Of a DNA stretch of 64,000 nucleotides, positions 14,269-62,364 are shown piece by piece. How positions within the stretch are numbered: position 1 is the first letter of the stretch; every line of letters begins with the position of its first letter. The position numbers were made by a program, and so were the translations under genes. This stretch comes from a virus: IMG/VR virus record IMGVR_UViG_3300036792_000267, positions 1 through 64,000 of that record; one strand, written 5' to 3'. The notes beneath the pieces are model-generated. The model was given only the letters and a program-made list of their open reading frames with translations, ran no database searches and was not told the DNA's origin.

Positions 14269-14860
14269 CGTAGACGCCTTCTACGCGGGCAAGCGCCCTG
14301 CCCCGCCCATGGAAGCGTTCATGTCGGACGGGGCGCTGGAGCAGGTGGCCGAGCAAACCGCCGCCGCTGCCGCGCCGGTGCATGCCGCGGACCTGGTGCC
14401 CATCACCAAGGCGGAAGCCGCCCGGCGCACCACGTTCGACGGGGAGACGCTGCCGAACGTGCCCGCCACGCGCCGCGTCATTCCCGAGCCGTTCCGGCGC
14501 CCGCTGGTCCAGTTGGTCAGCGTAGAGGGCCCCACCCACGGCCGGGCGTGGGTCACCTGTCTGGTCGACAAGATTACCGAGGGCGACATGGTGGTCGACG
14601 TCGGCCGCATCGCCTGCGACGCCGAGACTGTCATCAGGTACGAGACCGTCGCCGGGGTGCCGGACGTAGCAGTAGGCATGAAGGTCATTCTCACCGGAGT
14701 CTCCGGTAACCGGGTGCCGTTCAACCCGGGCACGCGCGTCAGGGCCTTTCGTCTGGCCGAGTTATGGGCCGCCATGGCCGCGGGGGCCGCAAGCGGGTCC
14801 TCGACATCGGCTGCGGGGCAGGGATCTCCTCAGACGGGTACGCCGCCTACTTCGACGTGA
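14216..14860 (+). CDS. Hypothetical protein (effective end probably TTA 14762-14764)
   Basis: GGAAGGA RBS; TTATG junction with next gene. Confidence 0.65.
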   Translation: MSDKPGHIIEIPESLGRDVDAFYAGKRPAPPMEAFMSDGALEQVAEQTAAAAAPVHAADLVPITKAEAARRTTFDGETLPNVPATRRVIPEPFRRPLVQLVSVEGPTHGRAWVTCLVDKITEGDMVVDVGRIACDAETVIRYETVAGVPDVAVGMKVILTGVSGNRVPFNPGTRVRAFRLAELWAAMAAGAASGSSTSAAGQGSPQTGTPPTST

Positions 14861-15486
14861 CAGGAGTCGACAACAACCCGGCGGTGGGCCGGTACTACCC
14901 GTACGAGTTTGTTTGCGGGGACGCTCTCAAGCTGGACTCAGGCGGGCGGCCCGTGTCGGCCCTGGAGCCTGGTTACCTGCGGCAGTTCGACCTCATCCAC
15001 CTGGGCGGCCCGTGCCAGCCCTGGAGCAAGATGATGAACTGCCGCCCGGGGCTGCGCGAGAAGTACACCGACCTCATCGGGCCGCTGCGCCCGGTGCTTG
15101 AGGAGAGCGGCGTGCCCTACGTCATCGAGAACGTGGAGGGCGCCCCGCTCAGGGACCCCGTCTGGCTGTGCGCGGTGGCGTTCGGCGTTCCCGAGCTGCT
15201 CCGGCACCGCGGGTTCGAAACCGGCAACGGCCTGGTCATCCCGCCGTTGTACCACCCTAAGCACCCGCTGAAGGCCAGCAAGGCAGGTCACTGGGTGCCG
15301 GGCACGGCGATGTCCCTGGCCGGCCACTCCGCCCCCATCGCCAAGGTCCGCGAGCTGATGGGCGTCACGCGCTACGTCCCGCGCGAGATGCTGATGGAGG
15401 CTGCCCCCGGCTACATGACCGCTTACGTCGCCGCGCACGCCGTGGCCTACCTGAGCCAGGAGGCGGCGTTATGGCCGATGCGGTAG
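14764..15486 (+). CDS. DNA cytosine-5 methyltransferase-like protein
   Basis: VLDIGCGAG, GGPCQPWS, VIENV, RHRGFE. Confidence 0.8.
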   Translation: MGRHGRGGRKRVLDIGCGAGISSDGYAAYFDVTGVDNNPAVGRYYPYEFVCGDALKLDSGGRPVSALEPGYLRQFDLIHLGGPCQPWSKMMNCRPGLREKYTDLIGPLRPVLEESGVPYVIENVEGAPLRDPVWLCAVAFGVPELLRHRGFETGNGLVIPPLYHPKHPLKASKAGHWVPGTAMSLAGHSAPIAKVRELMGVTRYVPREMLMEAAPGYMTAYVAAHAVAYLSQEAALWPMR

Positions 15487-16934
15487 CTCACGGGAACACG
15501 GTCCTGGCTGCCATCGTGGCCGGCGGCGGGTCGGTGAAGGCGCTGGACCACGCGGCCGAGCGGCTGGTCATGCCCGAGCTGTTCTTCACCGACACCGTTC
15601 AGCTCAAGCTCTTCCTGCTGCTTGAGCGGTACCGCCGCCAGGCCGGCGGCATCATGAGCCGCGAGGTGCTGAGCGACCTGCTGCGCGGGCGCAAGCCCGG
15701 CACCATTCAGATGTACGAGGAGGCCTACGACGGGCTGGCCGCGGCGCTGCCCGAGGAGCATCAGTTCCGCCATGCGGTCGACCAGTTGCGCGAGCTGGCG
15801 GCCAAGCGCTTCACTGGCGAGGCGTTCGCCGTGGGCAGGCAGATCCTTGACGCGAGCGAGGCCGAGCCGGTGAAGCTGGAGGACGGCCGGACGCTGTGGG
15901 GGCACCTGGAGGCGCGCGCGTACGTGCAGGCTGCTCTCGCCGACGCGGAGCAACTGGGGTCGGAGGCGGATACCCCGGCAGGCAATGTCACTGGCGAGGG
16001 GGATGAGGTGATGGCTGCCTACGCCCGCGCCAAGGAGCTGCGCCAGTCCGGTCGCCCGGTTGGCGTCCAGCTCGGCTTCCCCGAGCTGGAGCGCTCTCTG
16101 GGCGGCGGCATCGGCAAGGGGCTGTGCTTGATAATCTCGCCCACCTCGGTCGGCAAGTCCAGCCTCTGCGTGCACGCTGCCTGGCACAACGCGGTCGTCC
16201 ACGGGCGCAACGTGTTTTACTTCACCACCGAGCAGCACTACGACGAGGTGCGGGTGAAGCTGTTCGCCCGGCACTCGCGCCACCCCAAGTTCGGGCTTCC
16301 GCGCGGGCTCGACACCCTGGACATCATGTCCGGCCGCCTGTCCGAGGAGGAGGAGCGGGCGCTGGCCTGGGTCGCCGACGACCTGAAGACCGGCGGCTAC
16401 GGGGAACTCCACGTTGTGCAGATGCCTGAGCACTGCACGGTGGCGGCGTTCTCCGGGCGGGCGGAGTCGATGGCTCGTCGGTGCCTCCCTGAGCTGATGG
16501 TGTTCGACTACCTGCAGTTGTGCGACCCGGCGCAGTTGTCGCGCGACTCTAAGGTGCACGAGAACCAGTCGGGCATCGTCAAGGCGTCGCACCGCTGGGC
16601 GGAGACGGCGTTCCACGGCAAGGGGGTTTCCCTCATCTCCCCCTGGCAGCCCAACCAGGGCGGCGCGCAGGCTCTGCGGGGCAGCGGGCCGTTCTCGGTC
16701 GACACGCACATGAGCCAGTCGTCGGAGGCAGGCAAGACGGCGGGCCTGGTGCTCGCGCTGGCCGCGCCGGAAGAGGACACCTCCCGCGGGCGGGCGGCCC
16801 CGCTGGTGCTGTCGGTCGAGAAGAATCGCAACGGCCGGAAGGGCGCGCGGGCGCAGATTGTCGCCGACTACGCGACCAGCTACTTCACCGACCGGGAGCT
16901 GCCGGACGAGGACCCGATCGACTTCGGGGAGTGA
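15471..16934 (+). CDS. dnaB: DnaB-like replicative helicase
   Basis: GFPELERSLGG, SPTSVGKS, FTTEQ, VFDYLQL, VEKNRNG. Confidence 0.85.
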   Translation: MADAVAHGNTVLAAIVAGGGSVKALDHAAERLVMPELFFTDTVQLKLFLLLERYRRQAGGIMSREVLSDLLRGRKPGTIQMYEEAYDGLAAALPEEHQFRHAVDQLRELAAKRFTGEAFAVGRQILDASEAEPVKLEDGRTLWGHLEARAYVQAALADAEQLGSEADTPAGNVTGEGDEVMAAYARAKELRQSGRPVGVQLGFPELERSLGGGIGKGLCLIISPTSVGKSSLCVHAAWHNAVVHGRNVFYFTTEQHYDEVRVKLFARHSRHPKFGLPRGLDTLDIMSGRLSEEEERALAWVADDLKTGGYGELHVVQMPEHCTVAAFSGRAESMARRCLPELMVFDYLQLCDPAQLSRDSKVHENQSGIVKASHRWAETAFHGKGVSLISPWQPNQGGAQALRGSGPFSVDTHMSQSSEAGKTAGLVLALAAPEEDTSRGRAAPLVLSVEKNRNGRKGARAQIVADYATSYFTDRELPDEDPIDFGE

Positions 16935-16935
16935 C

Positions 16936-17469
16936 GTGCCGCGCAAGAGGACGCTGTACGCCATCGCGAACGAGCGCATCTCGTTCGACAAGGCCATGCA
17001 GTGGGCCGGGCAGGCCGGGGCGGTCGCGCGCGACCGCGGGGTCAAGGTCGCCTGCCCGTCTTGCGGCGAGGACGGCGCGATGCGCGTCTACCCGAACCAC
17101 GGGTGGTGCTTCTCCGAGCAGGCGTACTTCTCCCCCGTCGGCCTGCTGGCCGAGGTCTGGGAGATGGACCGCGACACCGCCGCCAAGCGGGCACTGGACA
17201 TGATCGGCTACGCGCCGCCGGAGTACCCCGAGCTGTGGGAGGCCGCGCAGCGCGACCCTGAGCCTGCGCTCGATGACCTGGCGACCGCGCTGCGCCTGTA
17301 CTGCGCGCGGGTGTGCCCGGACTGGGCTGCCCGGCAGTACGAGGATGCCGTGGCGAGCCGGCTGGCCCGCTGCCTGGGGGCGCTGCGGGCGGTCCGGACG
17401 GAGGAGGACTGCCGGAAGTGGCTCACGGTGGCGAAAACGGTCATGGGGCGCGTGCTGTCTCGGCACTAG
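16936..17469 (+). CDS. Primase-type zinc-finger protein
   Basis: KVACPSCGEDGAMRVYPNHGWCF next to DnaB. Confidence 0.55.
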   Translation: MPRKRTLYAIANERISFDKAMQWAGQAGAVARDRGVKVACPSCGEDGAMRVYPNHGWCFSEQAYFSPVGLLAEVWEMDRDTAAKRALDMIGYAPPEYPELWEAAQRDPEPALDDLATALRLYCARVCPDWAARQYEDAVASRLARCLGALRAVRTEEDCRKWLTVAKTVMGRVLSRH

Positions 17470-17478
17470 CGGAATAGA

Positions 17479-17494
17479 CTTGACTCCGGTTAAG
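17479..17494. promoter_or_regulatory. Operator copy
   Basis: CTTGAC-TCCG-GTTAAG. Confidence 0.6.
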
Positions 17495-17545
17495 CTATAG
17501 TTGAGACAGCAACAACTCCCTTACCGAGGGGCTAGGAGAAGACAC

Positions 17546-17968: not shown

Positions 17969-17983
17969 GCGTAAGGTGACGGC

Positions 17984-18280
17984 ATGCCCGAGCACGACTA
18001 CCTGGATAAGTCTGTCCCGGCTGCCCTTGACGATGACTTCAAGGCCCCGTGGTTCGACTGGCTGACGGAGCAGTGGCCCGAGCGGGACACCGCCCGGGGC
18101 TGCCTCGCGGCGGTGCACCGCATGGATGTTGAGCGCGCCATGCAGCCGCCGGTCGTCAACGTCACCGTGCCCGGCATCCCCGGGCACTTCACCGGGACGC
18201 TCGGCGGCGGCGAGGTGGCCTACCTGCCCGACCCTGCGCTCACCGGCGCGTTCACGGCCTTGCCGGATTCCCTCGCGTGA
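17984..18280 (+). CDS. Hypothetical protein
   Basis: Coding bias. Confidence 0.6.
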   Translation: MPEHDYLDKSVPAALDDDFKAPWFDWLTEQWPERDTARGCLAAVHRMDVERAMQPPVVNVTVPGIPGHFTGTLGGGEVAYLPDPALTGAFTALPDSLA

Positions 18281-39165: not shown

Positions 39166-39230
39166 GCGACAACGGGACGCTCCGGCTGAGCTGGTCGCCG
39201 TGTACCGTACACTCCTGGTGTGAAGACTTA
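39162..39230 (+). pseudogene. Remnant 5' end of PD-(D/E)XK nuclease gene
   Basis: MSDNGTLRLSWS duplicates GDDGALRLSWS at 39767-39799. Confidence 0.6.
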
Positions 39231-42585: not shown

Positions 42586-42767
42586 TGGCGGTCACTGTCG
42601 GAACGTTCCGCTTGTCGAGGCAGAGTGTGGCCGTCACTGACGGCAAGCGCCACATCCAGTTCGATACCCCTGCTGACATGGTGGACTGGCTGAACCGTCA
42701 CCCGGAGGTAGTTGCCGACATCTGCCATTTCGACTGGACGACTCAGGCAGTTCTTGGTGGCCACTGA
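42582..42767 (+). CDS. Hypothetical protein
   Basis: Coupled ORF. Confidence 0.5.
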   Translation: MMAVTVGTFRLSRQSVAVTDGKRHIQFDTPADMVDWLNRHPEVVADICHFDWTTQAVLGGH

Positions 42768-43791
42768 CCTTGCGGCCCTCGCAACGGCGGTCCGGTCCAC
42801 ACGGCGGGACCTGGACCGCCAGGCGGGGCGTGCCCAGCAGGTGGCCAAGGCCGGCCAGCAGGCTGAGGCGGATATCAAGCGCCATCTGGAACGTGCCGAG
42901 TTGTGCGCCTGCACCGCAGCCCTGCTCACGAGGATCGGCGAGGAGGCGCAGGAGAGCGCCCGCGAGATGTTCGATGACCTGGCCACGCGGGCGCTGCGGG
43001 ACATCTTCGGCGACGAGTTTTCGTTCCGCCTGGTGCCCGGGGAGACTGGCGGCCAGGTGACCCTGGAGCCGGTCATCCGGTCGGAGTACGACGGCGAGGT
43101 CATCGAGACGCCCGTGCTCGAAGCGCGCGGCGGCGGCATGGCGGTGGTCGTCGGGTTTGTGCTGCAACTGGTCATGGTTCTGCTCACCCCGGGCGCGCGC
43201 AAGATCCTGTTCCTTGACGAGACGTTCGCGTTCGTGTCGGAGAGCTACACCGACCGGCTGGCGGAGTTCATCGCCAAGGTCGCTAAGAGCAAGGGCGTGC
43301 AGATTGTGATGATTACCCATGACCGGACGTTCGCGCAGTACGCCGACGTCAAGGTGCGCCTGGTGCTCGGCCCCGGCGGGGTAACCCAGGTCTACGAGGG
43401 GGAGAGCGAGTTATGCCAGGCCGTAGTCCTGACTCGATCGAGCGGTGGTTGGACGAGAACCTGTTTCGTTTCGATGGTCCCGCCCAGATGCTGGGGACCG
43501 AGCCCAACGCGACGCGCCGGAAGTGGGACCTCACTGACGTGCGGTGGCTGCTCGCCGCGAGCTGGGATTACAGCCAGGCAGCCGGCAACATGGCGATCCC
43601 CGCCCTGTACGACGCGATCCACAAGGCCGGGGTTTACACGCTGGCCGACCGTTTTTACCTTCCCGCCACCCCGCGCGACATGGACCTGCTGGAGCGCGGC
43701 CAGGTGCCGGTGTTCGGCATCGAGTCCAGGCACCAGGCCCGCGACTTCGACGTGCTGGGAACGTCTATCTCGTACACAGTTCTGTTCATGA
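42757..43791 (+). CDS. SbcC/Rad50-like ATPase, C-terminal half (effective end probably TTA 43411-43413)
   Basis: ARGGG signature, LFLDE Walker B, ITHD H-loop. Confidence 0.8.
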   Translation: MATDLAALATAVRSTRRDLDRQAGRAQQVAKAGQQAEADIKRHLERAELCACTAALLTRIGEEAQESAREMFDDLATRALRDIFGDEFSFRLVPGETGGQVTLEPVIRSEYDGEVIETPVLEARGGGMAVVVGFVLQLVMVLLTPGARKILFLDETFAFVSESYTDRLAEFIAKVAKSKGVQIVMITHDRTFAQYADVKVRLVLGPGGVTQVYEGESELCQAVVLTRSSGGWTRTCFVSMVPPRCWGPSPTRRAGSGTSLTCGGCSPRAGITARQPATWRSPPCTTRSTRPGFTRWPTVFTFPPPRATWTCWSAARCRCSASSPGTRPATSTCWERLSRTQFCS

Positions 43792-46385
43792 ACTTCTGTA
43801 AGTTCCTGACGATGAGCGGCATCCCGCTGCGCTGGAGGGACCGGAGGGAGAACGCTGCCGACTACCCGATGGTCATGGCTGGCGGCCAGGCCTACTGCGC
43901 GCCGGAGTTCATGGCCCCGGTGGTGGACTGCGTGTGGCTGGGGGAGGCCGAGGACGAAGAGGGCAATCCCGGCATCAGCGCGGTCTGCGAGGCTATCCGC
44001 AAGATGAAGGACGCGGGCTTCTGGCAGAGCGACCGCGAGCTGTGTTACCGGGACCTCGCGCGCACGTTCAACTTCCTGTACTTCCCTCGGTATACGGCGG
44101 TGGACTACCACTACGAGGACCGCGGGCTGCCGGAGCCGACGAAGATGGTGTCCGGTTACCGGAGCACGATCGAGGGTGTCGGGACCACCTTCAAGGCCCG
44201 GCGCGTGGCCAACCTCAACAAGGCTGACCTGATGACGTCAGCGCCGCTGCTGTTCGGCGACCCGGGCATGGGCTCGGGCGACGTGGAGATGCAGCGCGGG
44301 TGCCCAGCCTGGTGCGTGTTCTGCCGGATCGGCTGGGTGACCAAGCCTCCCCGGCAGGAGGACGTTGACCGCACTGTGGCCCGTGCGCTGAAGTGGCGCG
44401 ACAGCATGGGGTCGGTTGACATTTCCCTGGTCGCCCCCGACCCGCCTATGCACACCCAGAAGAAGAAGCTGATCGCCGAGCTGCTGGAGAACGTCACCGG
44501 CCGGGTGGACGCCTCCTCGATGCGGATTGACGACTACCTGTCCGACCCCGACTTCGCGCTGCTGCTGCAGGTTTCCGGGGTCACGGCGCTCACCCTCGGC
44601 CTGGAGGGCAACGCCCAGCACACGCGCGACCTGGCTGGCAAGGGCACGTCCGACGCCGACGTGGAGAAGGTCGTTACCCGGGCGATCCGGGCCGGCGTCC
44701 GCAAGATCAAGCTCTACTTCATCACCAACTGGCCCGGTGAGGAACTGGCCGACGTGATGCGGGTGGTGGAGCTGGGCAAGAAGCTGGCTGACATCCGCAA
44801 CGGGTTCGGCGAGGCCGCGGCCGGCGTGCAGATCATCTTCAGCTGGACCCCGTTGCTCATCGAGGCACAAACCCCGTTGCAGTGGTTTGAGGTCACTCCG
44901 CCCGACTACATGCTGCAGGAGGCCCTGACCGAGCTGCGGGACCACCGGATCTGGATCAAGATCGGATCTAAGGCTAGTCCGCCTAAGCTCGCGTTCTTCC
45001 AGGCGTGCCAGCGGGCCAACCGGGGCGCGGGCGAGGCCATCGTAGACGTCATCGAGCACTACGGCACGGCCAGCTGGGGCGGCTTCCCGAAGGACATGCG
45101 GGAAAGACTCGATGAGTCGATGAAAGTTCACGGGTTCCGCAACGGGCTCGATGACATCTTCGGCGAGCGGTTCTTCGAGGACCGGCTCGGCTGGGAGATG
45201 ATCGACACTGGCGTCAAGCCGTCGCTGATGTGGCGAGCTTACCGGGACATGGTGGAGTTCCTTGAAGGCACTGACGCCGGGACCTACGACGCTGATATCC
45301 CCGAGGGATATCACGGCAACGAGTGGGTGTCGCGCTGCGACCAGCATTGCTCGGGCAACTCGTGCGGGGCGTGTGACAAGCACGACCTGGAGCTGCGCCG
45401 CCAGTACGTGCAGGCCGTCGACCGCGACCTGTCCCGTGAGCCGGTCCGGCCCATCGACCAGGCGACCGTGGCTCAGCGGGTGCGGCTGAAGGTGGAGCGG
45501 CCGGCGAAGTTCCGTTTCGTGTCCGGCACCTCGCTGGAGTACATCATCCGCCGGGCTGGCTACCGGGCCCAGGCTGCCATGGCTGCGCTCGGCAGGCCCG
45601 TGCCAGACATGGCGGTGGAATCGGTGCGGCTGGCGTCGTCCGGCACCTCTTACCGCGAGCGCAGCGCCGGGGTCGACTACGCCGAGTTCGGCCTGACCCG
45701 TGTGGCCGACAACTTCGACATCGGCGAATACCTCATCAAGATGGCCGTGCACATGCATCCGCACTTGCACTGGAGCGGGAACTTCGCGGTGCTCCCGGCC
45801 GCGGCGAGGCTCCCTGCGCGCCCGCAGAGCTTGTGGGAGCTGGAGGTCGCTGACGATCCTGCGGTTCTGGTTAAGCGGCTGCAGCGGTGGGACGAGGCTG
45901 AGTCCGTGCCGGTGCTGGTCCGCGCGGACAGCTTCTACGCCGGCGCGACCGCTGTCGAGGGCGACGCTAAGGAGCACGTCTCGGACTTCTGGCTGGCCCG
46001 TGACGGGCAGCGCACCGTGCTGCGCATGCTGCTCAACGGCAAGCTCGGGCCCTACCAGGCGTACGCGGCGCTGGCCGGCAAGGCCAGCTGGATCGAGGCG
46101 GCGCGCTACACCGCGCAGCGCCTGGAGTTCTTCAGCGGCGGCGGGCAGCCGTGCGAGGGGTGCGGCATGCCGGTGCCGGCGTCCCTGCTCGACGTCCCGT
46201 GGAGCGAGCGGTACTGCCCGCGCTGCGGGGACGCGTCCGAAGGGAAGATAATCGCGGCGCTCGCGGGCGCCGGCGTATTACAGGTACCTGCGTTCGCACC
46301 TGGAGGAACCTGTGCAAGCACCCGGATTCAGCAAGCCGGCTCACGGTTACGGCCAGCCGTTCGGCATCAGCCCGGACACCACTGA
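43413..46385 (+). CDS. Radical SAM protein (TIGR03960-like) fused to TIGR03936/DUF2344-like domain (effective end probably TTA 46278-46280)
   Basis: EMQRGCPAWCVFC, DFDVLGTSISY, QRVRLKVERPAKFRFVS. Confidence 0.8.
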   Translation: MPGRSPDSIERWLDENLFRFDGPAQMLGTEPNATRRKWDLTDVRWLLAASWDYSQAAGNMAIPALYDAIHKAGVYTLADRFYLPATPRDMDLLERGQVPVFGIESRHQARDFDVLGTSISYTVLFMNFCKFLTMSGIPLRWRDRRENAADYPMVMAGGQAYCAPEFMAPVVDCVWLGEAEDEEGNPGISAVCEAIRKMKDAGFWQSDRELCYRDLARTFNFLYFPRYTAVDYHYEDRGLPEPTKMVSGYRSTIEGVGTTFKARRVANLNKADLMTSAPLLFGDPGMGSGDVEMQRGCPAWCVFCRIGWVTKPPRQEDVDRTVARALKWRDSMGSVDISLVAPDPPMHTQKKKLIAELLENVTGRVDASSMRIDDYLSDPDFALLLQVSGVTALTLGLEGNAQHTRDLAGKGTSDADVEKVVTRAIRAGVRKIKLYFITNWPGEELADVMRVVELGKKLADIRNGFGEAAAGVQIIFSWTPLLIEAQTPLQWFEVTPPDYMLQEALTELRDHRIWIKIGSKASPPKLAFFQACQRANRGAGEAIVDVIEHYGTASWGGFPKDMRERLDESMKVHGFRNGLDDIFGERFFEDRLGWEMIDTGVKPSLMWRAYRDMVEFLEGTDAGTYDADIPEGYHGNEWVSRCDQHCSGNSCGACDKHDLELRRQYVQAVDRDLSREPVRPIDQATVAQRVRLKVERPAKFRFVSGTSLEYIIRRAGYRAQAAMAALGRPVPDMAVESVRLASSGTSYRERSAGVDYAEFGLTRVADNFDIGEYLIKMAVHMHPHLHWSGNFAVLPAAARLPARPQSLWELEVADDPAVLVKRLQRWDEAESVPVLVRADSFYAGATAVEGDAKEHVSDFWLARDGQRTVLRMLLNGKLGPYQAYAALAGKASWIEAARYTAQRLEFFSGGGQPCEGCGMPVPASLLDVPWSERYCPRCGDASEGKIIAALAGAGVLQVPAFAPGGTCASTRIQQAGSRLRPAVRHQPGHH

Positions 46386-46461
46386 CGACAATTGGGCAGG
46401 TGACAGCTTCGCGGTAGTCCCTCCCCCGGAGGTTCTGGAGCCCGTTGAGCAGCCCGCCTGA
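46312..46461 (+). CDS. Small hypothetical protein (49 aa)
   Basis: GGAGG RBS, GTG start. Confidence 0.45.
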   Translation: MQAPGFSKPAHGYGQPFGISPDTTDDNWAGDSFAVVPPPEVLEPVEQPA

Positions 46462-49431: not shown

Positions 49432-50218
49432 CACCGCGCTGGTCATCACCGCGCACAAGAGACCCGAGTACCTGCGCCGGACGCTTGCGTCGTGGGCGGC
49501 GGCTGACCGCGTGGCGGAGCTGCGCCTGGTCGCCGTCGCGCTCGGCCCCTCGCACCGGCTGGACGACCAGATGGACGTCATCCGCGAGGCCGAGCAGGCC
49601 CTGGGCCGGAGGATCGTGGTCTTCCGCGACAGCCCGGAGGCTCAGCGCAGCCCCGGCATGCACCGCGCGCTCGGTGAGGCCATCGACCGGGTGACCGAGG
49701 ACTTCGCCCCCGAGTTCGTGCTCTGCGGCGAGGAGGACGTCATCGTCTCTGATGACGTGCTGGCGTACATGGCCTGGGCGCAGGTGCAGTACACCGACAG
49801 CATGCTGTGCATCTGCGCGCACAACCGCGGCGGGGCCGGCTGGGACGGGCTGAGCGCGCCGCGCGCCGACCAGGACGCCGACCAGGAGGCGGTCCGGCTG
49901 CTGCCGTACTTCAACCCCTGGGTGTGGTGCATCTGGCGGAACAACTGGAAGGCCGTGCTCCGCCCGGTGTGGGACTGGGACTGCGACAGCGGCGGATCAA
50001 GCGAGTCGGGTTACGACTGGAACATGCAGCGGCTGGCGTCCGTCGGCCCGTGGCAGAACCTGGTGCCGGACGCCGCGCGCAGCCAGACCATCGGCGAGCA
50101 CGCCGGCGTCTACTCCACCCCGGGCATCTTCCCGCTGCAGCAGGCGCAGTCTTTCCGCGGTCACCGCGAGCGCCCGGTGCGCTACCGGCTGGCGGAGAGC
50201 CCGCTTGGCGCTGGTTAG
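49421..50218 (+). CDS. GT-A fold glycosyltransferase
   Basis: ITAHKRPEYLRRTL, EEDVIVSDD, FNPWVW. Confidence 0.75.
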   Translation: MLSDTALVITAHKRPEYLRRTLASWAAADRVAELRLVAVALGPSHRLDDQMDVIREAEQALGRRIVVFRDSPEAQRSPGMHRALGEAIDRVTEDFAPEFVLCGEEDVIVSDDVLAYMAWAQVQYTDSMLCICAHNRGGAGWDGLSAPRADQDADQEAVRLLPYFNPWVWCIWRNNWKAVLRPVWDWDCDSGGSSESGYDWNMQRLASVGPWQNLVPDAARSQTIGEHAGVYSTPGIFPLQQAQSFRGHRERPVRYRLAESPLGAG

Positions 50219-50399
50219 CGAGAACGACAGCCTGCGGCGGTGGATTGTCTACGTCTACAAGGACGACAGGTGCACGTGCGACTACGCCTGGAAGAGCCTG
50301 GGCAAGGAGTACGGCGTCAGCTACGGCAAAGGCTGGGTCCGCCTGACTACGGCGGCGGACTGCCCACACCACGCCGCCCGATTAAAGGTGCGTGGCTAG
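50205..50399 (+). CDS. Hypothetical protein (TTA at 50382)
   Basis: CTC..CPHH. Confidence 0.55.
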   Translation: MALVSENDSLRRWIVYVYKDDRCTCDYAWKSLGKEYGVSYGKGWVRLTTAADCPHHAARLKVRG

Positions 50400-56196: not shown

Positions 56197-56270
56197 AGGG
56201 GTGTAGCTCAGTAGGTCAGAGCAGCGGTCTCCAAAACCGTGTGCCGCGGGTTCGAATCCCTCCTCCCCTG
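56197..56270 (+). tRNA. tRNA-Trp(CCA)
   Basis: Cloverleaf, loop CTCCAAA. Confidence 0.85.
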
Positions 56271-56282
56271 CGACCGTCAGCA

Positions 56283-56557
56283 ACGGCGAGAGCCTGAGCA
56301 GGCGCATGTCAACCGCATATTGACACTTCCACAGCGTGAGCATCTGCGGCGGGCGCCAACCCGCCGCAAGTTTCGGCGTGGTGAAAGACAATGCAGCTAC
56401 TCCCGGGGAGCAGCAGCCGTTAAAGGCTGGGGTCGCCGCAAGGCGGTCCTGTACCGGGCACCGTGCCAGTTTGAAAGCTTGCCGTGCCGTCATCAGGCGG
56501 AGTACACGGCAGCCAAGCGTGACGGCCGGGGCCGCGTTCACACCGTGGTCTCGCCGT
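56283..56557 (+). ncRNA. Candidate large structured ncRNA (~275 nt)
   Basis: Closing stem ACGGCGAGA/TCTCGCCGT plus several internal hairpins. Confidence 0.55.
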
Positions 56558-56566
56558 CGCGCCTAT

Positions 56567-56639
56567 GGGGTCTTAGCTCAGCTGGAAGAGCATCTGCTCG
56601 GCAGACAGAAGGTCACGGGTTCAAGTCCCGTAGGCTCCA
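56567..56639 (+). tRNA. tRNA-Ala(GGC), C33
   Basis: G3:U70, loop TCGGCAG. Confidence 0.85.
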
Positions 56640-56775
56640 CTGGACCGGATGGCAAGTCTGTCGCCATGTGTAGAGGGCCGTGACGGGTACCTCAGCGGCG
56701 GTTATACCGAAAGCCGGGTGTCTCCGGTGGCAAAGCGGCAGGTTTCGCGGGACATCTCCGTCATCCGGTTCTCCT

Positions 56776-56848
56776 GGGGCTTTAGCGCAGCTGGTAGCGC
56801 GCTGCATTCGCACCGCAGAGGCCGCGGGTTCGACTCCCGCAAGCTCCA
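56776..56848 (+). tRNA. tRNA-Ala(CGC)
   Basis: G3:U70, loop TTCGCAC. Confidence 0.88.
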
Positions 56849-57124
56849 CGTGGCGGACCGTGGCACGGCATCCGCAGCAGGGCCGATCACCCTGTGCACA
56901 GGTAACCGGCCTTGAATGCCCGGCGCGAGTCCAAGCGTCCGGGGCGGAGGCACCCGCCACTCCAATTCCCGGTGAGTAAGCCGTGGCAGGCTGAGGGGCC
57001 GGGGCAATGCGGAACAAGGCACGTGCTGGTCTGCCCCGTCGGTTCCAACCTCCGGGCCTGCTGGCCAAGGTCGCCTCGCCAGGCGGCTGATGCGGCGATG
57101 CAGGACCATGACGACCAGATTCAA

Positions 57125-57198
57125 CTAGCTATGGCGCAGCTTGGTAGCGCATCGCGTTCGGGACGCGAGGGCCGCAGGTTCAAATCCTGCTAGCCAGA
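57125..57198 (+). tRNA. tRNA-Pro(CGG)
   Basis: Loop TTCGGGA. Confidence 0.88.
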
Positions 57199-57199
57199 C

Positions 57200-57274
57200 T
57201 GGGGTGTAGGGAAGATTGGTCATCCCGCCTGCCTTGGGTGCAGGAGATCGCCGGTCCGAGTCCGGTCACCCCGA
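57200..57274 (+). tRNA. tRNA-Pro(TGG), C55
   Basis: Loop CTTGGGT, T-loop TCCGAGT. Confidence 0.85.
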
Positions 57275-57320
57275 CCCGTGTGAGTCAACCGACACACGTA
57301 AATCCCCATCGGTTGAGCCT

Positions 57321-57394
57321 GGGGCCTTAGCTCAGTTGGTAAGAGCGTCTGGTTGAAACCCGGAAGGTCGGTGCGTCGAGTGCACCAGGTCCCA
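57321..57394 (+). tRNA. tRNA-Phe(GAA)
   Basis: Loop TTGAAAC, T-loop GTCGAGT. Confidence 0.82.
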
Positions 57395-57408
57395 CGCAGT
57401 AACACAAT

Positions 57409-57481
57409 GGGGATGTGGCCGAGCGGCTACAGGCTCCTGCCCTCCAAGCAGGCTACGCGGGTTCGATTCCCGTCATCCCCT
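57409..57481 (+). tRNA. tRNA-Gly(TCC), C33
   Basis: Loop CCTCCAA, U73. Confidence 0.82.
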
Positions 57482-57588
57482 CTGGTACGGGCCAGACTCA
57501 TAATCTGGTTGCGTGCAAGCGGCTGTCGCGCCGCGGCCGGGCCGCCTGACGGGGGGCGACACCTTCGTCAGGGGCGCCGGTTGTTTAC

Positions 57589-57661
57589 GTGCCGCTAACT
57601 CAATTGGCAGAGTACCGTCCTCTTAAGTCGGGAGTTGGGGGTTCAAGTCCCTCGCGGCGCA
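57589..57661 (+). tRNA. tRNA-Lys(CTT)
   Basis: Loop CTCTTAA. Confidence 0.88.
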
Positions 57662-57744
57662 CTGGAGGCGGTCCGGAGACCGCGCCCGTGGCTGACAACG
57701 ACGTACAGGTCTCCTGCTGTCAGCGGGCCCGCCTCCAGCTTTTC

Positions 57745-57820
57745 GGGCGAGTAGCAGAACCGGCATATGCGGCGGCCTCAAAACCCGTGTCTCCTGCGGG
57801 TTCAAGTCCCGCCTCGCCCA
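57745..57820 (+). tRNA. tRNA-Leu(CAA)
   Basis: Loop CTCAAAA, short variable arm. Confidence 0.85.
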
Positions 57821-57917
57821 CGCGGCTGGCAAGGCCGTTCTGCGAATCCTTGCCCGGTCCCCTCTGCGGGAGGAACAGGTCCGTCAATCCGGGGTCAGCA
57901 AAGAGCCTCGGCAACTA

Positions 57918-57989
57918 TGGAGTATGGGGTAATCGGCAGCCCGGCAGATTCTGGCTCTGTCAGTCTTGGTTCGAGTCCAGGTACTCCAG
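57918..57989 (+). tRNA. tRNA-Gln(CTG)
   Basis: U1-A72, loop TTCTGGC. Confidence 0.88.
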
Positions 57990-58079
57990 CGAGAGCAGCA
58001 GGTCAAGGTGCATCTCGATCTCGTCATTGGTGATGAGGCTGACAGCCAGGTCGATGAAGTCAAGTTCGTCCATACTCAT
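57960..58079 (-). CDS. Small acidic peptide (39 aa)
   Basis: MSMDELDFIDLAVSLITNDEIEMHLDLLLSLEYLDSNQD, downstream of DinB-family gene. Confidence 0.45.
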   Translation of the reverse strand: MSMDELDFIDLAVSLITNDEIEMHLDLLLSLEYLDSNQD

Positions 58080-58108
58080 TAAGTTCGCGAGCAGGCCGAA
58101 CTGTGAGG

Positions 58109-58654
58109 TCAGTCAGGAACGTAGAGGTGGTGCGGGAGGATGTTCAGCGTGTAAGTCCCGTCGAACCGCGGCATGCTGCCGGCCAGCTCCCCCAGGTGCC
58201 AGTAGACGTGGACCGCTAGGTGCTCCCACACGGCCCCGCCGGTCAGCAGGGACACCGGCACCCCGGCAGGCGCGGGAGCGTCCCACTGGCTGAGGTCGAA
58301 CTCGTCCAGTACCCGCAGCGCCTTGGTGACCGTCTGGCAGAACACGCGCAGCAGGACCACCTTCGGGAACGTCTCCCGGTCGACGCTGGCTGCCTTGCTG
58401 ACGGCACTGGGCTCGGCCAGGTTTGTCTCGTTGAACACCTGGTGGACCGAGCGGCTGAGGACCGTCCGCCGCCCGTCGAGCCACGAGCTGAACAGGTCAG
58501 CCACGCAGGCCAGGTGCCCGATCGTCCAGGCAGCGGAGAACCCGGTCGGGAGTTCTTCGAAGAACTCGTCGTTACTGACCGGCTCCAGGCCGAGTAGCAG
58601 TATGTTGCCGCTGCGGTCGATCTGCCGCGCGACGACTTGCTTAGCAGTAGTCAT
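58109..58654 (-). CDS. DinB/YfiT-superfamily metalloprotein
   Basis: SAAWTIGHL...HLAVHVYWHLGEL. Confidence 0.8.
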   Translation of the reverse strand: MTTAKQVVARQIDRSGNILLLGLEPVSNDEFFEELPTGFSAAWTIGHLACVADLFSSWLDGRRTVLSRSVHQVFNETNLAEPSAVSKAASVDRETFPKVVLLRVFCQTVTKALRVLDEFDLSQWDAPAPAGVPVSLLTGGAVWEHLAVHVYWHLGELAGSMPRFDGTYTLNILPHHLYVPD

Positions 58655-58665
58655 GCTTTTACTAC

Positions 58666-58739
58666 GCCCCGGTAGCTCAGCCGGAAGATGCGCTCGCTTC
58701 GTAAGCGAGAGGTCCCCAGTTCAACTCTGGGTCGGGGCT
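58666..58739 (+). tRNA. tRNA-Thr(CGT)
   Basis: Loop TTCGTAA. Confidence 0.85.
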
Positions 58740-58859
58740 CGGTCAGGCTGAGGCAGGGGAGGCCCTTCACCGGGTCGCACTAGGTTGCCCGCAGCCCAGT
58801 AGCTTGGGCACGGGAGAAGGATGCCGGGCAGCACGGCCCGGGTGTAGGCCTGACAACAA

Positions 58860-58943
58860 GCCCGAATGCTGCAATCGGTAGACTGACCCGCTTGAGGAGT
58901 GGGTGTCCTTCGGGGCGTGCGGGTTCGAGTCCCGCTTCGGGCA
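58860..58943 (+). tRNA. tRNA-Leu(GAG)
   Basis: Loop TTGAGGA, long variable arm. Confidence 0.85.
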
Positions 58944-59040
58944 CCTGGGGGAGATCCGGTGTAGCGCACCGGCTGGGGGCCAGGGCCCCTGGTAGTTCAA
59001 AAGTCGCTGACAGCCCTGGCAGAAAGAACACCCCCTCTAC

Positions 59041-59113
59041 GCCGGCTTAGCTCATCGGGCAGAGCGCCCGCCTTGTAAGCGGAAGGTGACCCGTTCGAGT
59101 CGGGTAGCCGGCT
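59041..59113 (+). tRNA. tRNA-Thr(TGT)
   Basis: Loop CTTGTAA. Confidence 0.88.
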
Positions 59114-59213
59114 CGGAGGCTGCATGCAAGGTACGGCGCGCTAACGCGCGGGACAGCGCAGGAACCCGAGTACCGTCGTAAACCGACTGTCCTTGCAGCC
59201 TCCTTCAGCTCGC

Positions 59214-59287
59214 TCCGGGGTGGGTTGTGCGGCATCCCGTCTTGACTTTGGATCAAGGGCACGCCAGTTCGATTCTGGCCCCCGGAA
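59214..59287 (+). tRNA. tRNA-Gln(TTG)
   Basis: Loop CTTTGGA. Confidence 0.8.
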
Positions 59288-59296
59288 CAAGCACAT

Positions 59297-59370
59297 GCCC
59301 CGGTAGCTCAGTTGGCGAGAGCGTTTCCCTGGTACGGAGGAGGTCCCGCGTTCGATTCGCGGTCGGGGCT
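59297..59370 (+). tRNA. tRNA-Thr(GGT)
   Basis: Loop CTGGTAC. Confidence 0.85.
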
Positions 59371-59381
59371 CGCAAGATCAT

Positions 59382-59454
59382 GCCGACGTGGTGCAGCTGG
59401 TGGCACATCGCCTTGCCAAGGCGGAGGTCGCGGGTTCGAATCCCGTCGTCGGCT
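59382..59454 (+). tRNA. tRNA-Gly(GCC)
   Basis: Loop TTGCCAA. Confidence 0.88.
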
Positions 59455-59590
59455 CGTGTACCCCGCCGTGGCCACCGGGTAAGGGGGTTCAGCACATGCC
59501 CGGGTCGCGCCCGGCACGGTGGCACGGCTGCCCTGGCAGCCTGCTCTCCTGACGACAGGGGACAAGGGGGCTCAGCCCTCCCAGGGACGC

Positions 59591-59674
59591 GGGCGGGTGG
59601 CGGAATAGGCAGACGCGCACGGTCCAGGCCCGTGTATCCCGCAGGATGTGAGGGTTCAAGTCCCTCCTCGCCCA
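59591..59674 (+). tRNA. tRNA-Leu(CAG), C33
   Basis: Loop TCCAGGC, long variable arm. Confidence 0.85.
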
Positions 59675-59765
59675 CTTTCGGGTCCGCTCCCGTGGCCCGG
59701 GGGCGTCGCGCATCGCGCCGCGGCGGTTCCAGTCCTCCTGCTAGCGGAGGGCGAACGGGAGGCCC

Positions 59766-59856
59766 GGAGGGATGGCACGAGTGGCTTAAGGCGCTGTCCT
59801 GCTAAGGCAGAGGGTCTGCGAGAGCGGCCCCGCGGGTTCGAATCCCGCTCCCTCCG
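59766..59856 (+). tRNA. tRNA-Ser(GCT)
   Basis: Loop CTGCTAA, long variable arm. Confidence 0.88.
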
Positions 59857-59941
59857 CTTCTGTACCGGATACCAGCCAAGTCCGTTAGGTGGTGACGCAG
59901 GTACAGCGCCCGCGGGAGACGGCAATCCTTGGCGGGCACCT

Positions 59942-60027
59942 GGAGGGTTCGCCTAGTCCGGCCTATGGCGCTGCGTCGGAAGCGCAGTTGGTTAACAGCC
60001 TCGCGAGTTCGAATCTCGCACCCTCTG
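59942..60027 (+). tRNA. tRNA-Ser(GGA), C33
   Basis: Loop TCGGAAG. Confidence 0.85.
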
Positions 60028-60030
60028 CCC

Positions 60031-60122
60031 CGGAGAGGTAAATCGAGTTGGCCTACCGATCGCGGTCCCGAAAACCGTCAGGGGGTTCGTCCCCCGTGTG
60101 AGTTCGAGTCTCACCCTCTCTG
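60031..60122 (+). tRNA. tRNA-Ser(CGA), C33
   Basis: Loop CCCGAAA. Confidence 0.82.
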
Positions 60123-60315
60123 CGCATGGCTTGAGGCGGTACCCGCGGGCCGCTGCAGGTACCGCCTCCGTAATCGCCAGGCGAATGAATCTGCTCGGAT
60201 TCAGCTTCGAGACCAGACTCGGTGCCTTGCAGGCGGCTGTTACCGCCTGCACCCGAAAGCATACATACGGTTACGATCTTGAGCAAGCGGCGAAATAGCT
60301 CAAGATGTCTGGCAC

Positions 60316-60388
60316 GGGCGGGCAGCTCGATGGTTCGAGCAGCTTCCTGATACGGAGAAGGTTGGAGGTTCAAGTCCTCCTCCGCCCA
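60316..60388 (+). tRNA. tRNA-Ile(GAT), C8
   Basis: Loop CTGATAC. Confidence 0.82.
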
Positions 60389-60399
60389 CGTACGACCGG

Positions 60400-60473
60400 A
60401 GGCCGGTAGCTCAGCTGGTCAGAGCGACACGCTTATAACGTGTGCGTCAGGAGTTCAAGCCTCCTCCGGCCTA
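60400..60473 (+). tRNA. tRNA-Ile(TAT)
   Basis: Perfect stems, loop CTTATAA. Confidence 0.85.
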
Positions 60474-60476
60474 CGA

Positions 60477-60552
60477 CGCGGGGTAGCTCAGTTGGCAGAG
60501 CAGCCGGCCCATAACCGGAAGGTCGCGGGTCCGAGTCCCGTCCTCGCTACCA
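60477..60552 (+). tRNA. tRNA-Met(CAT), initiator-like, C33 C55
   Basis: C1 mismatch, loop CCCATAA, encoded CCA. Confidence 0.85.
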
Positions 60553-60553
60553 C

Positions 60554-60627
60554 GGGCCGCTAGCTCAACAGCGAAGAGCAGTTGCCTTTTAAGCTTCAGG
60601 TTCCGGGTTCGAGCCCCGGGCGGCCCA
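60554..60627 (+). tRNA. tRNA-Lys(TTT)
   Basis: Loop CTTTTAA. Confidence 0.8.
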
Positions 60628-60641
60628 CTAGCCTGGTTCCT

Positions 60642-60788
60642 GTGAAGACTCTGGCCTGGCTCCTCGATGAAGCCCTGGACCGGCTCCCGTGCCGCGAGGA
60701 CGGCCGGTGGCGCTGGTACGGCGAGTGGGGCTGCCGACTGGAGAACAGGTTTCCTGTCCTGCGCGAGTGGATGTACGAGCGCCGGTAG
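60642..60788 (+). CDS. Small Trp/Arg-rich hypothetical protein
   Basis: MKTLAWLLDEALDRLPC..; stop lies inside next tRNA. Confidence 0.45.
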   Translation: MKTLAWLLDEALDRLPCREDGRWRWYGEWGCRLENRFPVLREWMYERR

Positions 60789-60852
60789 CTCAGCCGGATA
60801 GAGCGGCTTCCTTCTAAGAAGACGGCCGGGGGTTCGAATCCCTCCCGGCGCG
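60779..60852 (+). tRNA. tRNA-Arg(TCT)
   Basis: Loop CTTCTAA. Confidence 0.88.
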
Positions 60853-60863
60853 CGCATGAACAT

Positions 60864-60941
60864 GGTCTTGCAGAGCAGTCCGGAGTGCTCGCCTGCCCCT
60901 CAAGCAGGAGATCGTCGGTTCGAATCCGTCCAGGACCACCA
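60864..60941 (+). tRNA. tRNA-Glu(CTC), C8 C33
   Basis: Loop CCCTCAA, encoded CCA. Confidence 0.82.
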
Positions 60942-60942
60942 A

Positions 60943-61016
60943 GCCCCCGTCGACTAGCGGCCTAAGTTACCGCCCCTTCAAGGCGGCGGACACCGGTTCG
61001 AATCCGGTTGGGGGCA
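60943..61016 (+). tRNA. tRNA-Glu(TTC), C33
   Basis: Loop CCTTCAA. Confidence 0.85.
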
Positions 61017-61050
61017 CGTGGGCATCAGGATTTATCCTGGTGTCCTTCGA

Positions 61051-61126
61051 CGCGGAGTAGGGGAGTTCGGTCGTCCCCGCGGCGCCCATAACGCCGAGAT
61101 CGCGGGTCCGAATCCCGCCTCCGCCA
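61051..61126 (+). tRNA. tRNA-Met(CAT), initiator-like, C33 C55
   Basis: C1:C72 mismatch, loop CCCATAA. Confidence 0.82.
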
Positions 61127-61230
61127 CGGGAAGGAACTGCCCAGCTCCCTTGCATCCGGATGCATCGGCACGCGCGGCTGGCGTTCCGGCACAGCGGCCC
61201 GGCCCCGGTCGTTCCCAAACGGGGCCTCTA

Positions 61231-61303
61231 TCCGGTGTGGCGCAATCGGCAGCGCAACTGACTGTTAATCAGAGGGTTCCCGGTCCGAGTCCGGGCACCG
61301 GAG
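61231..61303 (+). tRNA. tRNA-Asn(GTT), C55
   Basis: Loop CTGTTAA. Confidence 0.88.
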
Positions 61304-61412
61304 CGCGTGGGCCTGGGGCCTGCGGGATACAGCCTGGTCCGCGGCCGGGCCCGGGTCCCGTTGGGCGGAGAAGCAGCCATACCCAGGGAAGCGGGGGTGC
61401 CCCGCACATCAT

Positions 61413-61487
61413 GGTGACGTAACTCAGCATGGCCAGAGTGCTGCCTTGTCACGGCAGAAGTCGCGGGTTCAAATCCCGTCGTTACCG
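61413..61487 (+). tRNA. tRNA-Asp(GTC)
   Basis: Loop TTGTCAC, G73. Confidence 0.88.
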
Positions 61488-61637
61488 CGTGCCCCGTCGT
61501 CGCACGATGACCGTGCAGGCCAGGGCGAACAGCGCTAGCAGGCCGATGACTGGCCATGTTAGCCAGTGCAGCCCGGCCGCCTTCAGCAGGTCATCAAGGA
61601 TGAAGCCGAGCGCGACGCCGACCAGGATGAACAGCAT
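61482..61637 (-). CDS. Small two-TM membrane protein (51 aa)
   Basis: MLFILVGVALGFILDDLLKAAGLHWLTWPVIGLLALFALAC. Confidence 0.55.
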   Translation of the reverse strand: MLFILVGVALGFILDDLLKAAGLHWLTWPVIGLLALFALACTVIVRRRGTR

Positions 61638-61639
61638 CG

Positions 61640-61777
61640 TTAGCCGAGCCCGGCGCGACGCCGCCGCTCGGCGTGCTCGAAGTCACGGATGCGCCGGATG
61701 GCGAGGTGGCCGCCGAACTTGAGGCCGGTCGCGATGCCAGCGCCGAAGACGGCTAGCAGCAAGATGAAAGTGCCCAC
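61640..61777 (-). CDS. Small membrane protein (45 aa)
   Basis: MGTFILLLAVFGAGIATGLKFG..RRRR. Confidence 0.55.
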   Translation of the reverse strand: MGTFILLLAVFGAGIATGLKFGGHLAIRRIRDFEHAERRRRAGLG

Positions 61778-61831
61778 GTGATTAAACGGTACGTCACCCC
61801 CTGGTCTCTTTACCAGGGGCAAGCAAGACAT

Positions 61832-61905
61832 GGCCGTGTAGCTCAGCAGGCTAGAGCGTTTCCATGACACGGAAGAGGTCCCTGGTTCAAGTCCAGGTAC
61901 GGCCA
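61832..61905 (+). tRNA. tRNA-Val(GAC)
   Basis: Loop ATGACAC. Confidence 0.88.
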
Positions 61906-61906
61906 C

Positions 61907-61979
61907 GCGCGCGTAGCTCAACGGATAGAGCTGCAGTCTACGGAACTGTGTGTTGGAGGTTCGAGTCCTCTCGTGCGCA
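61907..61979 (+). tRNA. tRNA-Arg(ACG)
   Basis: Loop CTACGGA. Confidence 0.88.
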
Positions 61980-62039
61980 CTGGACGGCAGGTGAGCAGGC
62001 TGACACCGCCTTCGGGCTCAGCCCCCTGCCGTCTTTCAA

Positions 62040-62113
62040 GTCCGGTTAGCTCAGCCTGGGAGAGCGCTGCCTCCACACGGCAGGCGTCGGGGGTTCAAAT
62101 CCCTCACTGGACA
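62040..62113 (+). tRNA. tRNA-Val(CAC), C33
   Basis: Loop TCCACAC. Confidence 0.85.
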
Positions 62114-62114
62114 C

Positions 62115-62190
62115 GGTGGGATTTGCCGTCGAGGGAAGGCGCAGGGTTGTGGTCCCTGCAAGGCGGGTCCGACTCCCGTATCTCACCCCA
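62115..62190 (+). tRNA. tRNA-His(GTG), C55
   Basis: G-1:C73, loop TTGTGGT, encoded CCA. Confidence 0.82.
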
Positions 62191-62191
62191 A

Positions 62192-62271
62192 AGCGACAGT
62201 GGGCGGCGGCACGCCCAGCGGCCTGTAAAGCCGTGGCCTTGGCAGACCTGGGTCGGCACCAGGTGTCGCTA
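62192..62271 (+). tRNA. Divergent tRNA-Tyr(GTA)
   Basis: Loop CTGTAAA; atypical T-loop GTCGGCA. Confidence 0.65.
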
Positions 62272-62364
62272 CGTTAAGGTTTTCCCGAGAAAAGGAGAGC
62301 CTATGCCCAGGTACACGATTCCCTGCGTCGCCCACTGTGAAAGCGGGGCATTAACGCAGGTCTT

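Follow-up and report, generated by a model that had tools for sequence, protein, structure and literature searches.

In-Frame TTA Codons Stand at Gene Ends and Frame-Breaking Inserts in a High-GC Phage and Its Relatives

Introduction

In the phage genome of IMG/VR record IMGVR_UViG_3300036792_000267, the leucine codon TTA (UUA in the mRNA) is found in frame where genes end or where a short insert breaks a gene, and the comparison of orthologues indicates that selection treats it as the equivalent of a stop codon. UUA is probably unreadable during infection, translation either ending at it or, where the preceding codon recurs downstream, hopping over the sequence in between. That this phage or its host terminates or stalls at UUA, either through reassignment of the codon to a stop or through gating by tRNA-Leu(UAA), was the core of an original prediction, made from a window of 64,000 nucleotides (nt; positions 1 to 64,000 of the record). 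Termination or stalling at UUA is supported by the exchange of TTA with stop codons between orthologues, by unconserved tails behind TTA, and by the lack of both TTA at interior conserved leucines and a tRNA-Leu(UAA), across six genomes.

The window covers the first 64 kb of the record, which comes from an uncultured soil phage, is a single contig of 151,377 bp with direct terminal repeats, and is rated complete. This genome (G000) has a GC content of 68%, rising to near 90% at third codon positions, and nearly all of its genes lie on the + strand. A nucleotide search of a cultured-phage collection gave no match to it, and the closest cultured phage by protein search is Microbacterium phage Magritte, with 38% identity. 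Relatives are numerous in soil metagenomes, with contigs of up to ~155 kb. Five related IMG/VR genomes of full length (G001 to G005; 124–152 kb, 69–72% GC) were used for comparison, and further lineages (L004, L008, which is a locus of G003, L014, L016, L017, and L018) were compared at single loci. Genes were called with a codon log-likelihood caller, trained on long open reading frames (ORFs) of high third-position GC, which gave 226 genes and ~42,600 codons in the standard code for G000 as the base for the in-frame TTA count.

Results

Among the called genes of G000, TTA occurs in frame seven times (14762, 15469, 46278, 46347, 50382, 88225, and 127436), which makes it the rarest codon, followed by ATA (25), AGA (27), and TGT (28). 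A further TTA, at 43411, ends an SbcC-like ORF that is missing from the caller's set because it overlaps its neighbor by 379 nt. All seven TTAs of the set lie where the coding signal ends, the one at 46347 within the junk tail behind 46278, and the last 15% of the standard-code ORFs holds 86% of the TTAs, against 8–37% for other rare codons. The original prediction proposed such a count by position in the gene, and its outcome over the whole genome agrees with it. The same pattern is seen in G001 to G005, where TTA stands at ORF ends, often as TTATG. With 5–11 occurrences per 34,000–44,000 codons, it is the rarest in-frame codon in every one of the six genomes except G003, where it is the second rarest. 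When TTA is counted as a stop, 3–6% of the genes in each genome end in it, and TTATG makes up 45% of the TTA ends, compared with 12% of TGA ends for TGATG. The rarity and the end position of TTA are far beyond chance.

Sense use of TTA is close to absent. From the third-position A/G ratios of other codon pairs and the TTG count, 12–48 sense TTAs would be expected across the six genomes, and two were seen. Both candidates are at one doubtful recoding site in G001 and G005, described below; in G000, G002, G003, and G004 none stands before the functional end of a gene. A test of TTA in the interior of protein alignments was confounded by overlapping conserved genes, and alignment at the codon level was used instead. 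There, TTA stands opposite TTA or stop codons and never systematically opposite CTG or CTC, and no interior conserved leucine is encoded by TTA in the six genomes.

The position that TTA takes in orthologous genes was read in two directions. In the forward test, alignment of the 50 residues upstream of each in-frame TTA gave the codon that takes its place in each of the other genomes; in the reverse test, the 45 C-terminal residues at each gene end of the six genomes were aligned and the codon opposite the stop was read in the others. TTA stands opposite a standard stop in 43 of 1,174 pairwise columns, whereas every other sense codon does so at most six times, with TTA amounting to ~0.02% of codons. 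Conversely, TTA ends face TTA (63), TAG (15), TGA (9), and five other codons, and those five belong to genes that run two codons longer. Homologues carry TGA, TAA, or TAG at the TTA position, a check that the original prediction had suggested, and the exchange occurs in the same orthologous column in at least eight gene families.

Several of these families illustrate the exchange. The gene that ends at 14762 has TTA in G000, G001, G002, and G004 and TAG in G003 and G005. The SbcC-like gene ending at 43411 has TTA in G000, G003, L014, and L016, whereas six other lineages carry TGA or TAG there. A giant tail gene ends in TTA in G001 and G003, with 69 junk codons behind it in G003, and in TGA in G000, G002, G004, and G005; here ATG GTC TGA TGG of G000 faces ATG ATC TTA TGG of G001, with single-base differences in an otherwise identical context. 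The radical SAM gene ending at 46278 has TTA in 12 of 13 lineages (including all six genomes, L004, L016, and L018) and TAA in L017. For the small gene at 50205–50384, CGA TTA is found in G001 and G003, and TAG lies over the same bases in G002. Besides these sites, four more families exchange TTA and a stop, each in one or two genomes. The patterns fit no single tree, and the changes must therefore have arisen repeatedly. Furthermore, the same TTA sites are present in independent assemblies from separate samples and sources.

The sequence behind TTA does not resemble coding sequence under selection. The tails are unconserved, range from 1 to 526 codons, and carry insertions and deletions that are not divisible by three. 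In the SbcC-like family, most homologues end directly after a conserved ...E-x-E, and ~26 of the 120 homologues among the matches listed go on with L and then C or W, as TTA TGx would be read, followed by unrelated tails. In the radical SAM family, ~35 of 69 homologues go on after ...GV (a few after ...V) with L and unrelated tails of 5–526 residues, and distant homologues end at the ...GV position. In these two families together, all but one of the extensions past the family C-terminus begin with L. The spacer between the radical SAM TTA and the next ribosome-binding site (RBS) is 20, 21, 25, or 27 nt long depending on the genome, and the differences are not multiples of three. The longest tail is in G003 (92439–96788, P0157), where the standard-code radical SAM ORF runs 526 codons beyond TTA and is fused to the clamp-loader gene; IMG annotates this fusion as a DNA polymerase III gamma/tau of 1,449 residues. 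Tails that look non-coding also exist without TTA. At 13795–14268 of the window, which serves as a control for such tails, the coding signal fades ~48 codons before the stop, with a 52-nt overlap with the next gene (GTG 14216), and 74187–74765 is another case.

Seven genes of G000 end in TTA when it is counted as a stop (14216–14764, 14764–15471, 42757–43413, 43449–46280 as called, 50205–50384, 87547–88227, and 126851–127438), and those in the window lie on the + strand. A gene of unassigned family (14216–14764) loses its coding signal at TTA 14762–14764, in the context GAG TTA TG, and has its standard stop 32 codons further on (14858–14860), inside the next gene. That gene, methyltransferase-like by Pfam (14764–15471), ends in TTA at 15469–15471 (GCG TTA TG), and ATG 15471 starts the DnaB-like helicase gene; G001, G002, and G003 also have this TTA end, and the tails are 5–21 codons long. 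The C-terminal half of the SbcC-like ATPase (42757–43413; the start is uncertain, 42712 or 42757) ends in TTA at 43411–43413 (GAG TTA TG). The original prediction had noted that its standard-code ORF continues for 126 codons into the radical SAM gene. It does so, to 43791, and the frame-by-frame profile agrees with an end at TTA: the coding signal reaches 43410 and then changes frame exactly at GAG TTA TG, with a strongly negative log-likelihood in the old frame over the 126 codons. At all three TTATG junctions (14762, 15469, and 43411) the ATG starts the next gene, mirroring the TGATG junctions at 4012, 19154, and 50832, as had been described.

The radical SAM protein (Pfam Radical_SAM_N2 and Radical_SAM) is encoded at 43413–46280, its start being placed at ATG 43413, where the caller gave 43449. 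It ends in TTA at 46278–46280 (GTA TTA CAG), with the standard stop at 46383–46385. Its end before the next gene was also anticipated correctly, since a GGAGGA RBS and a GTG start at 46312 follow. The small gene of 49 codons that begins there (46312–46461, + strand) would be overlapped by the radical SAM junk tail; TTA 46347 is in frame in this tail and out of frame in the small gene. The product of the small gene is found in frame within the tails of some radical SAM homologues. Another small gene (50205–50384) ends in TTA at 50382–50384 (CGA TTA AAG), 7 nt upstream of the GTG of the next gene (50392). Outside the window, TTA 88225 ends a tail-region gene and TTA 127436 ends an ECF-type sigma-factor gene, whose regions 2 and 4 finish well upstream. 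G001 and G002 share the latter TTA, and what follows it there is unrelated. This TTA was considered as a counter-example in which coding resumes in the same frame, and this was rejected, as it sits in a dip of the coding signal before a separate small ORF with its own RBS. In a weakly coding ORF with an acidic C-terminus (67620–68016), the signal is lost at an in-frame TTA (68014), and the standard stop follows 65 codons further on; absent from the caller's set, this ORF may be an eighth TTA-ended gene.

The original prediction had listed eight in-frame TTAs in the window as the only ones. Five of them (14762, 15469, 43411, 46278, and 50382) are gene ends, the other three are to be read differently, and 46347 is a further in-frame site in the window. 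Around the TTA at 39228–39230 (+ strand), part of a TTATG, no frame shows coding signal, and this TTA is out of frame with EndoVII. Judged by the coding-signal profile and the translations, it is in no demonstrable coding frame and was ruled out as part of the phenomenon. The TTA at 62351–62353 would end a putative mini-ORF of 16 codons with an RBS (62303–62353, + strand), 11 nt before a tRNA-Arg gene, and the mini-ORF is conserved in none of the five relatives. The TTA at 39815 appears, from the orthologous sequences, to be a switch site and a candidate UUA-triggered hop, not a gene end.

This last site lies in a gene for a PD-(D/E)XK exonuclease on the + strand. A leader of 21 codons starts at ATG 39753 (39753–39821) and runs into a 7-nt insert, CAT TTA G CAT (39812–39821), behind which the body, a match to Pfam PDDEXK_1, is in the +1 frame to 40589. 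The gene thus reads ...S-W-S-R-L-R-L-H, then CAT TTA G CAT, then D-E-C-P... in the +1 frame, whereas all five relatives have ...S-W-S-R-L-x-x-H-D-E-C-P in an unbroken frame and no 7-nt insert. The major capsid gene likewise has a 7-nt insert (GTT TTA A GTT, 71692–71701) and is continuous in all five relatives. Its Pfam capsid match begins at profile position 32, as would be expected if the N-terminus is encoded before the break, and the gene would terminate two codons past its TTA were TTA read. In the tape-measure gene, GGT TTA N7 GGT of G000 corresponds to GGT TTA CCCA GGT of G002, and G005 is continuous. The tape-measure leader of G000 (88220–88300) holds two serial inserts, TGG TTA ... TGG and GGT TTA ... 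GGT, for which G002 and G004 have other spacer lengths. These inserts, together with the TTA ends of the tail-region (88225) and sigma-factor (127436) genes, make the coupling of replication genes that had been put forward for TTA too narrow a role.

A generic scan for a codon repeated around a stop or TTA and a spacer was swamped by ordinary gene junctions and did not discriminate, and a scan for frame breaks between orthologues was used instead. It gave 11 sites, of which seven are candidates for recoding. The tape-measure leaders of G002 and G004 account for three of these, the G001 and G004 orthologues of a G002 gene of 532 residues account for two, and two lie elsewhere; all seven have TTA at the break, none a standard stop. 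The remaining four are radical SAM ORFs that pass their TTA into the next gene. In G001 (~117060) and G005 (~11975, minus strand), a 2-nt insert, ...TAY TAC TTA GC AAC..., lies near codon 8 of a conserved gene of ~300 residues, the orthologue of G000 97512–98426, which is continuous in the other four genomes. No matching landing codon is present at this insert.

Two further routes past TTA were considered and rejected as general explanations. A hop at the TTATG junctions finds no matching codon near 14762, and the GAG found 32 nt downstream of 43408 is probably there by chance, because orthologues carry plain stops at this place. A +1 or -1 shift onto a stop would find a +1 stop only at 50382 and 127436, and none in the common TTATG and TTAC contexts.

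For the decoding of UUA, the phage brings no tRNA. ARAGORN finds 37 tRNA genes for all 20 amino acids in the array at 56197–62595 (+ strand), not the 38 counted from the letters in the original prediction, which was right that three leucine tRNAs are present and that none reads UUA: the leucine anticodons are CAA, GAG, and CAG, and Rfam adds no tRNA. Readers of the rare codons AUA (anticodon UAU) and AGA (UCU) are present in the array. Each of the six genomes has 33–37 tRNAs, which cover all amino acids, and anticodon UAA is missing in every one; no transfer-messenger RNA (tmRNA) was found in any of these genomes. A release factor, ArfB, tmRNA, or tRNA-Leu(TAA) in the rest of the genome had been suggested as something to look for, and none is there; RF-1, PCRF, ArfB-type, and Pth domains are not encoded by the phage. 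A terminator factor encoded by the phage was dropped on the lack of RF-1, PCRF, and Pth domains and tmRNA. The array of G002 contains a tRNA with anticodon UCA (91931–92009, L033; labeled SeC by ARAGORN), which is expected to read UGA; it may be an opal suppressor, in a clade where genes also end in TTA.

A scan of genome contigs for the host gave no match, and a WhiB domain was not found. The search for look-alikes of the sigma factor gives a weak hint that the host belongs to the Actinomycetota. Elsewhere in the window, 6384–8096 encodes a protein of 570 residues with TraG/TraD-type coupling-protein domains (TraG-D_C and T4SS-DNA_transf), which is unusual for a phage genome of lytic type.

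Discussion

We infer that UUA is not decoded during infection, and this one cause would explain both the gene ends and the hops. The phage supplies no tRNA for UUA, and the tRNA-Leu(UAA) of the host is presumably absent or inactive, in which case UUA in the A site would halt elongation. At a gene end, the finished protein would be released and TTA would act as a fourth stop, with TTATG coupling this end to the next start as TGATG does. Inside a gene, if a second copy of the codon that precedes UUA lies 7–14 nt downstream, the peptidyl-tRNA would re-pair with that copy and the insert would be hopped. Release may proceed through peptidyl-tRNA drop-off followed by Pth, through a rescue factor, or through weak action of a release factor. 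The inserts use TTA and never TGA or TAG, which would fit a codon that nothing reads better than one for which a release factor competes. In addition, bypassing in a protein as abundant as the capsid protein requires that UUA is rarely read as leucine.

Several points weigh against an unreadable UUA. The radical SAM TTA is conserved and does not drift to TGA or TAG, a hint that it does more than end translation. TTA 127436 overlaps a promoter-like -10 element that could independently explain its conservation: at 127411–127441 of G000, between the sigma-factor gene and the small ORF (ATG 127484), TTGACA and TAGACT are separated by 18 nt. At the 2-nt insert of G001 and G005, TTA could be read as leucine from an internal ATG (M-A-L-L-L), or the shift could be of another kind. 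A stalled ribosome rescued by tmRNA normally has its protein tagged for degradation, so a release route that leaves the protein untagged must be assumed. Finally, a ribosome stalled on UUAUG covers the next start codon, and release must therefore be fast.

A true change of the code, in which UUA is recognized by a release factor such as an altered host RF2 and is a real stop in the host lineage and its phages, leaves the same comparative signature and is an unlikely but serious alternative. The hops would then use UUA as phage T4 uses UAG, which follows the take-off codon in T4 gene 60. The enrichment of TTATG over TGATG fits termination with re-initiation, which needs prompt release, and would be at home under such a code. 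There is also an organellar precedent, in which UUA stops are tied to mutations of the organelle's own RF2 or RF1, with a substitution at RF2 Ser204 found alongside the UUA stop (PMC12574857). On the other hand, RF-1 and PCRF domains are missing from the phage, searches of the literature gave no bacterial sense-to-stop code, and TTA ends so small a share of the genes. The recoding candidates at frame breaks, all with TTA and none with a standard stop, also suit a codon for which a release factor competes less well than one that nothing reads. In its full form, with UUA a fourth stop through a release factor in high-GC soil bacteria and their phages and at the same time the point of take-off for an efficient, programmed hop in the capsid, tape-measure, and nuclease genes, the proposal is likewise improbable.

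It is less likely still that a scarce host tRNA of the bldA type reads TTA as leucine, the tails being made at least late in infection and either tolerated or used as a timing device, and the change from stop to TTA being nearly neutral. The regulation by UUA through bldA is established in Streptomyces, and UUA-dependent recoding in phages has been proposed and partly tested (PMC10732093). The conserved TTA of the radical SAM gene suggests regulation, and the M-A-L-L-L reading in G001 and G005 would suit such a tRNA. However, a neutral loss of stops predicts that CGA, GGA, TGG, TCA, CAA, and similar codons would also stand opposite stops; none of these one-step derivatives comes near TTA in that column, with at most 6 occurrences against 43, and for this reason tolerated leucine-led tails are unlikely. 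Tails of 126–526 codons would fuse unrelated genes, interior TTA is absent from the six genomes, and the capsid gene would be cut off two codons past its TTA. An origin in errors of sequencing or assembly where TGA or TAA stood (perhaps due to modified bases) or in chance TTAs within long GC-rich overlaps, which the non-coding-like tails without TTA and a ~16-fold higher frequency of TTA out of frame than in frame might suggest, is very unlikely because the same sites recur in independent assemblies of different samples and sources and 115 TGATG sites are read normally; moreover, TAG to TTA takes two substitutions, and the position of TTA coincides with the stop column and is not scattered through the tails.

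UUA as a terminator has been described in the mitochondria of labyrinthuleans such as Thraustochytrium (NCBI table 23) and in peDinoflagellate plastids, and UUA and UUG in the mitochondria of Marsupiomonadales (PMC12574857). The present case resembles these organellar codes in that a leucine codon is missing where conserved residues are encoded and stands at the stop positions of homologues, the features by which a code of the table 23 type is recognized, and in the same kind of inference from C-terminal alignments. It differs from them in concerning a bacterial virus without a release-factor gene, in which TTA ends a small part of the genes and also marks frame-breaking inserts. For the terminase of Streptomyces phage Hau3 and two prophages, bypassing triggered by UUA has been proposed at inserts of 7 or 10 nt (Smith et al. 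2013, as summarized by Antonov et al. 2023, PMC10732093). The exonuclease and capsid genes, with their 7-nt inserts, share with Hau3, so far as that summary describes it, UUA followed by a short non-coding insert in a conserved phage gene, a matching landing codon, and unbroken orthologues. The layout of insert and repeated preceding codon is present in the exonuclease, capsid, and tape-measure genes, and hopping is predicted there from the layout. As summarized, the Hau3 work differs in dealing with one gene family of temperate Streptomyces phages and in describing no UUA at gene ends; here several essential genes are involved.

What the phages have in common with the bldA system of Streptomyces is high GC content together with a very rare UUA whose decoding is limiting. 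In bldA targets, TTA lies inside the ORF and is read as leucine once the tRNA is active, with functional protein downstream. In these phages, by contrast, TTA stands at no conserved leucine, and what lies downstream is junk or the next gene.

In the high-GC bacterium Micrococcus luteus, codons without a tRNA reportedly halt translation and are said to be simply unused (Kano et al. 1991, 1993), unlike TTA here, which marks defined places as a signal. Phages of the gut, among them crAss-like and Lak phages, read TAG or TGA as an amino acid by means of phage suppressor tRNAs. As in those phages, gene structure departs from translation table 11 and standard callers mis-annotate it, but the change runs in the opposite direction, from sense codon to terminator, and no phage-encoded factor was found. 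Searches of the literature gave no sense-to-stop case in a phage or bacterium; the cases found were the organellar UUA stops and the proposal of UUA bypass in Streptomyces phages.

If UUA ends translation in these phages, a sense codon has been turned into a terminator in a virus of bacteria, a change that we found described only for mitochondria and plastids; if a release factor reads it, a sense-to-stop genetic code would be recorded for the first time outside organelles. Surveys of the Codetta type use profile alignments to assign every codon an amino acid and are therefore not expected to detect such a change. When genes are called with table 11, false C-terminal tails and false fusions result for these phages. 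The finding also links termination with the little-studied bypassing at UUA in actinophages, both of which could follow from one unreadable codon. The use of TTA may also show how a phage with a near-complete set of tRNAs senses or exploits the condition of its host.

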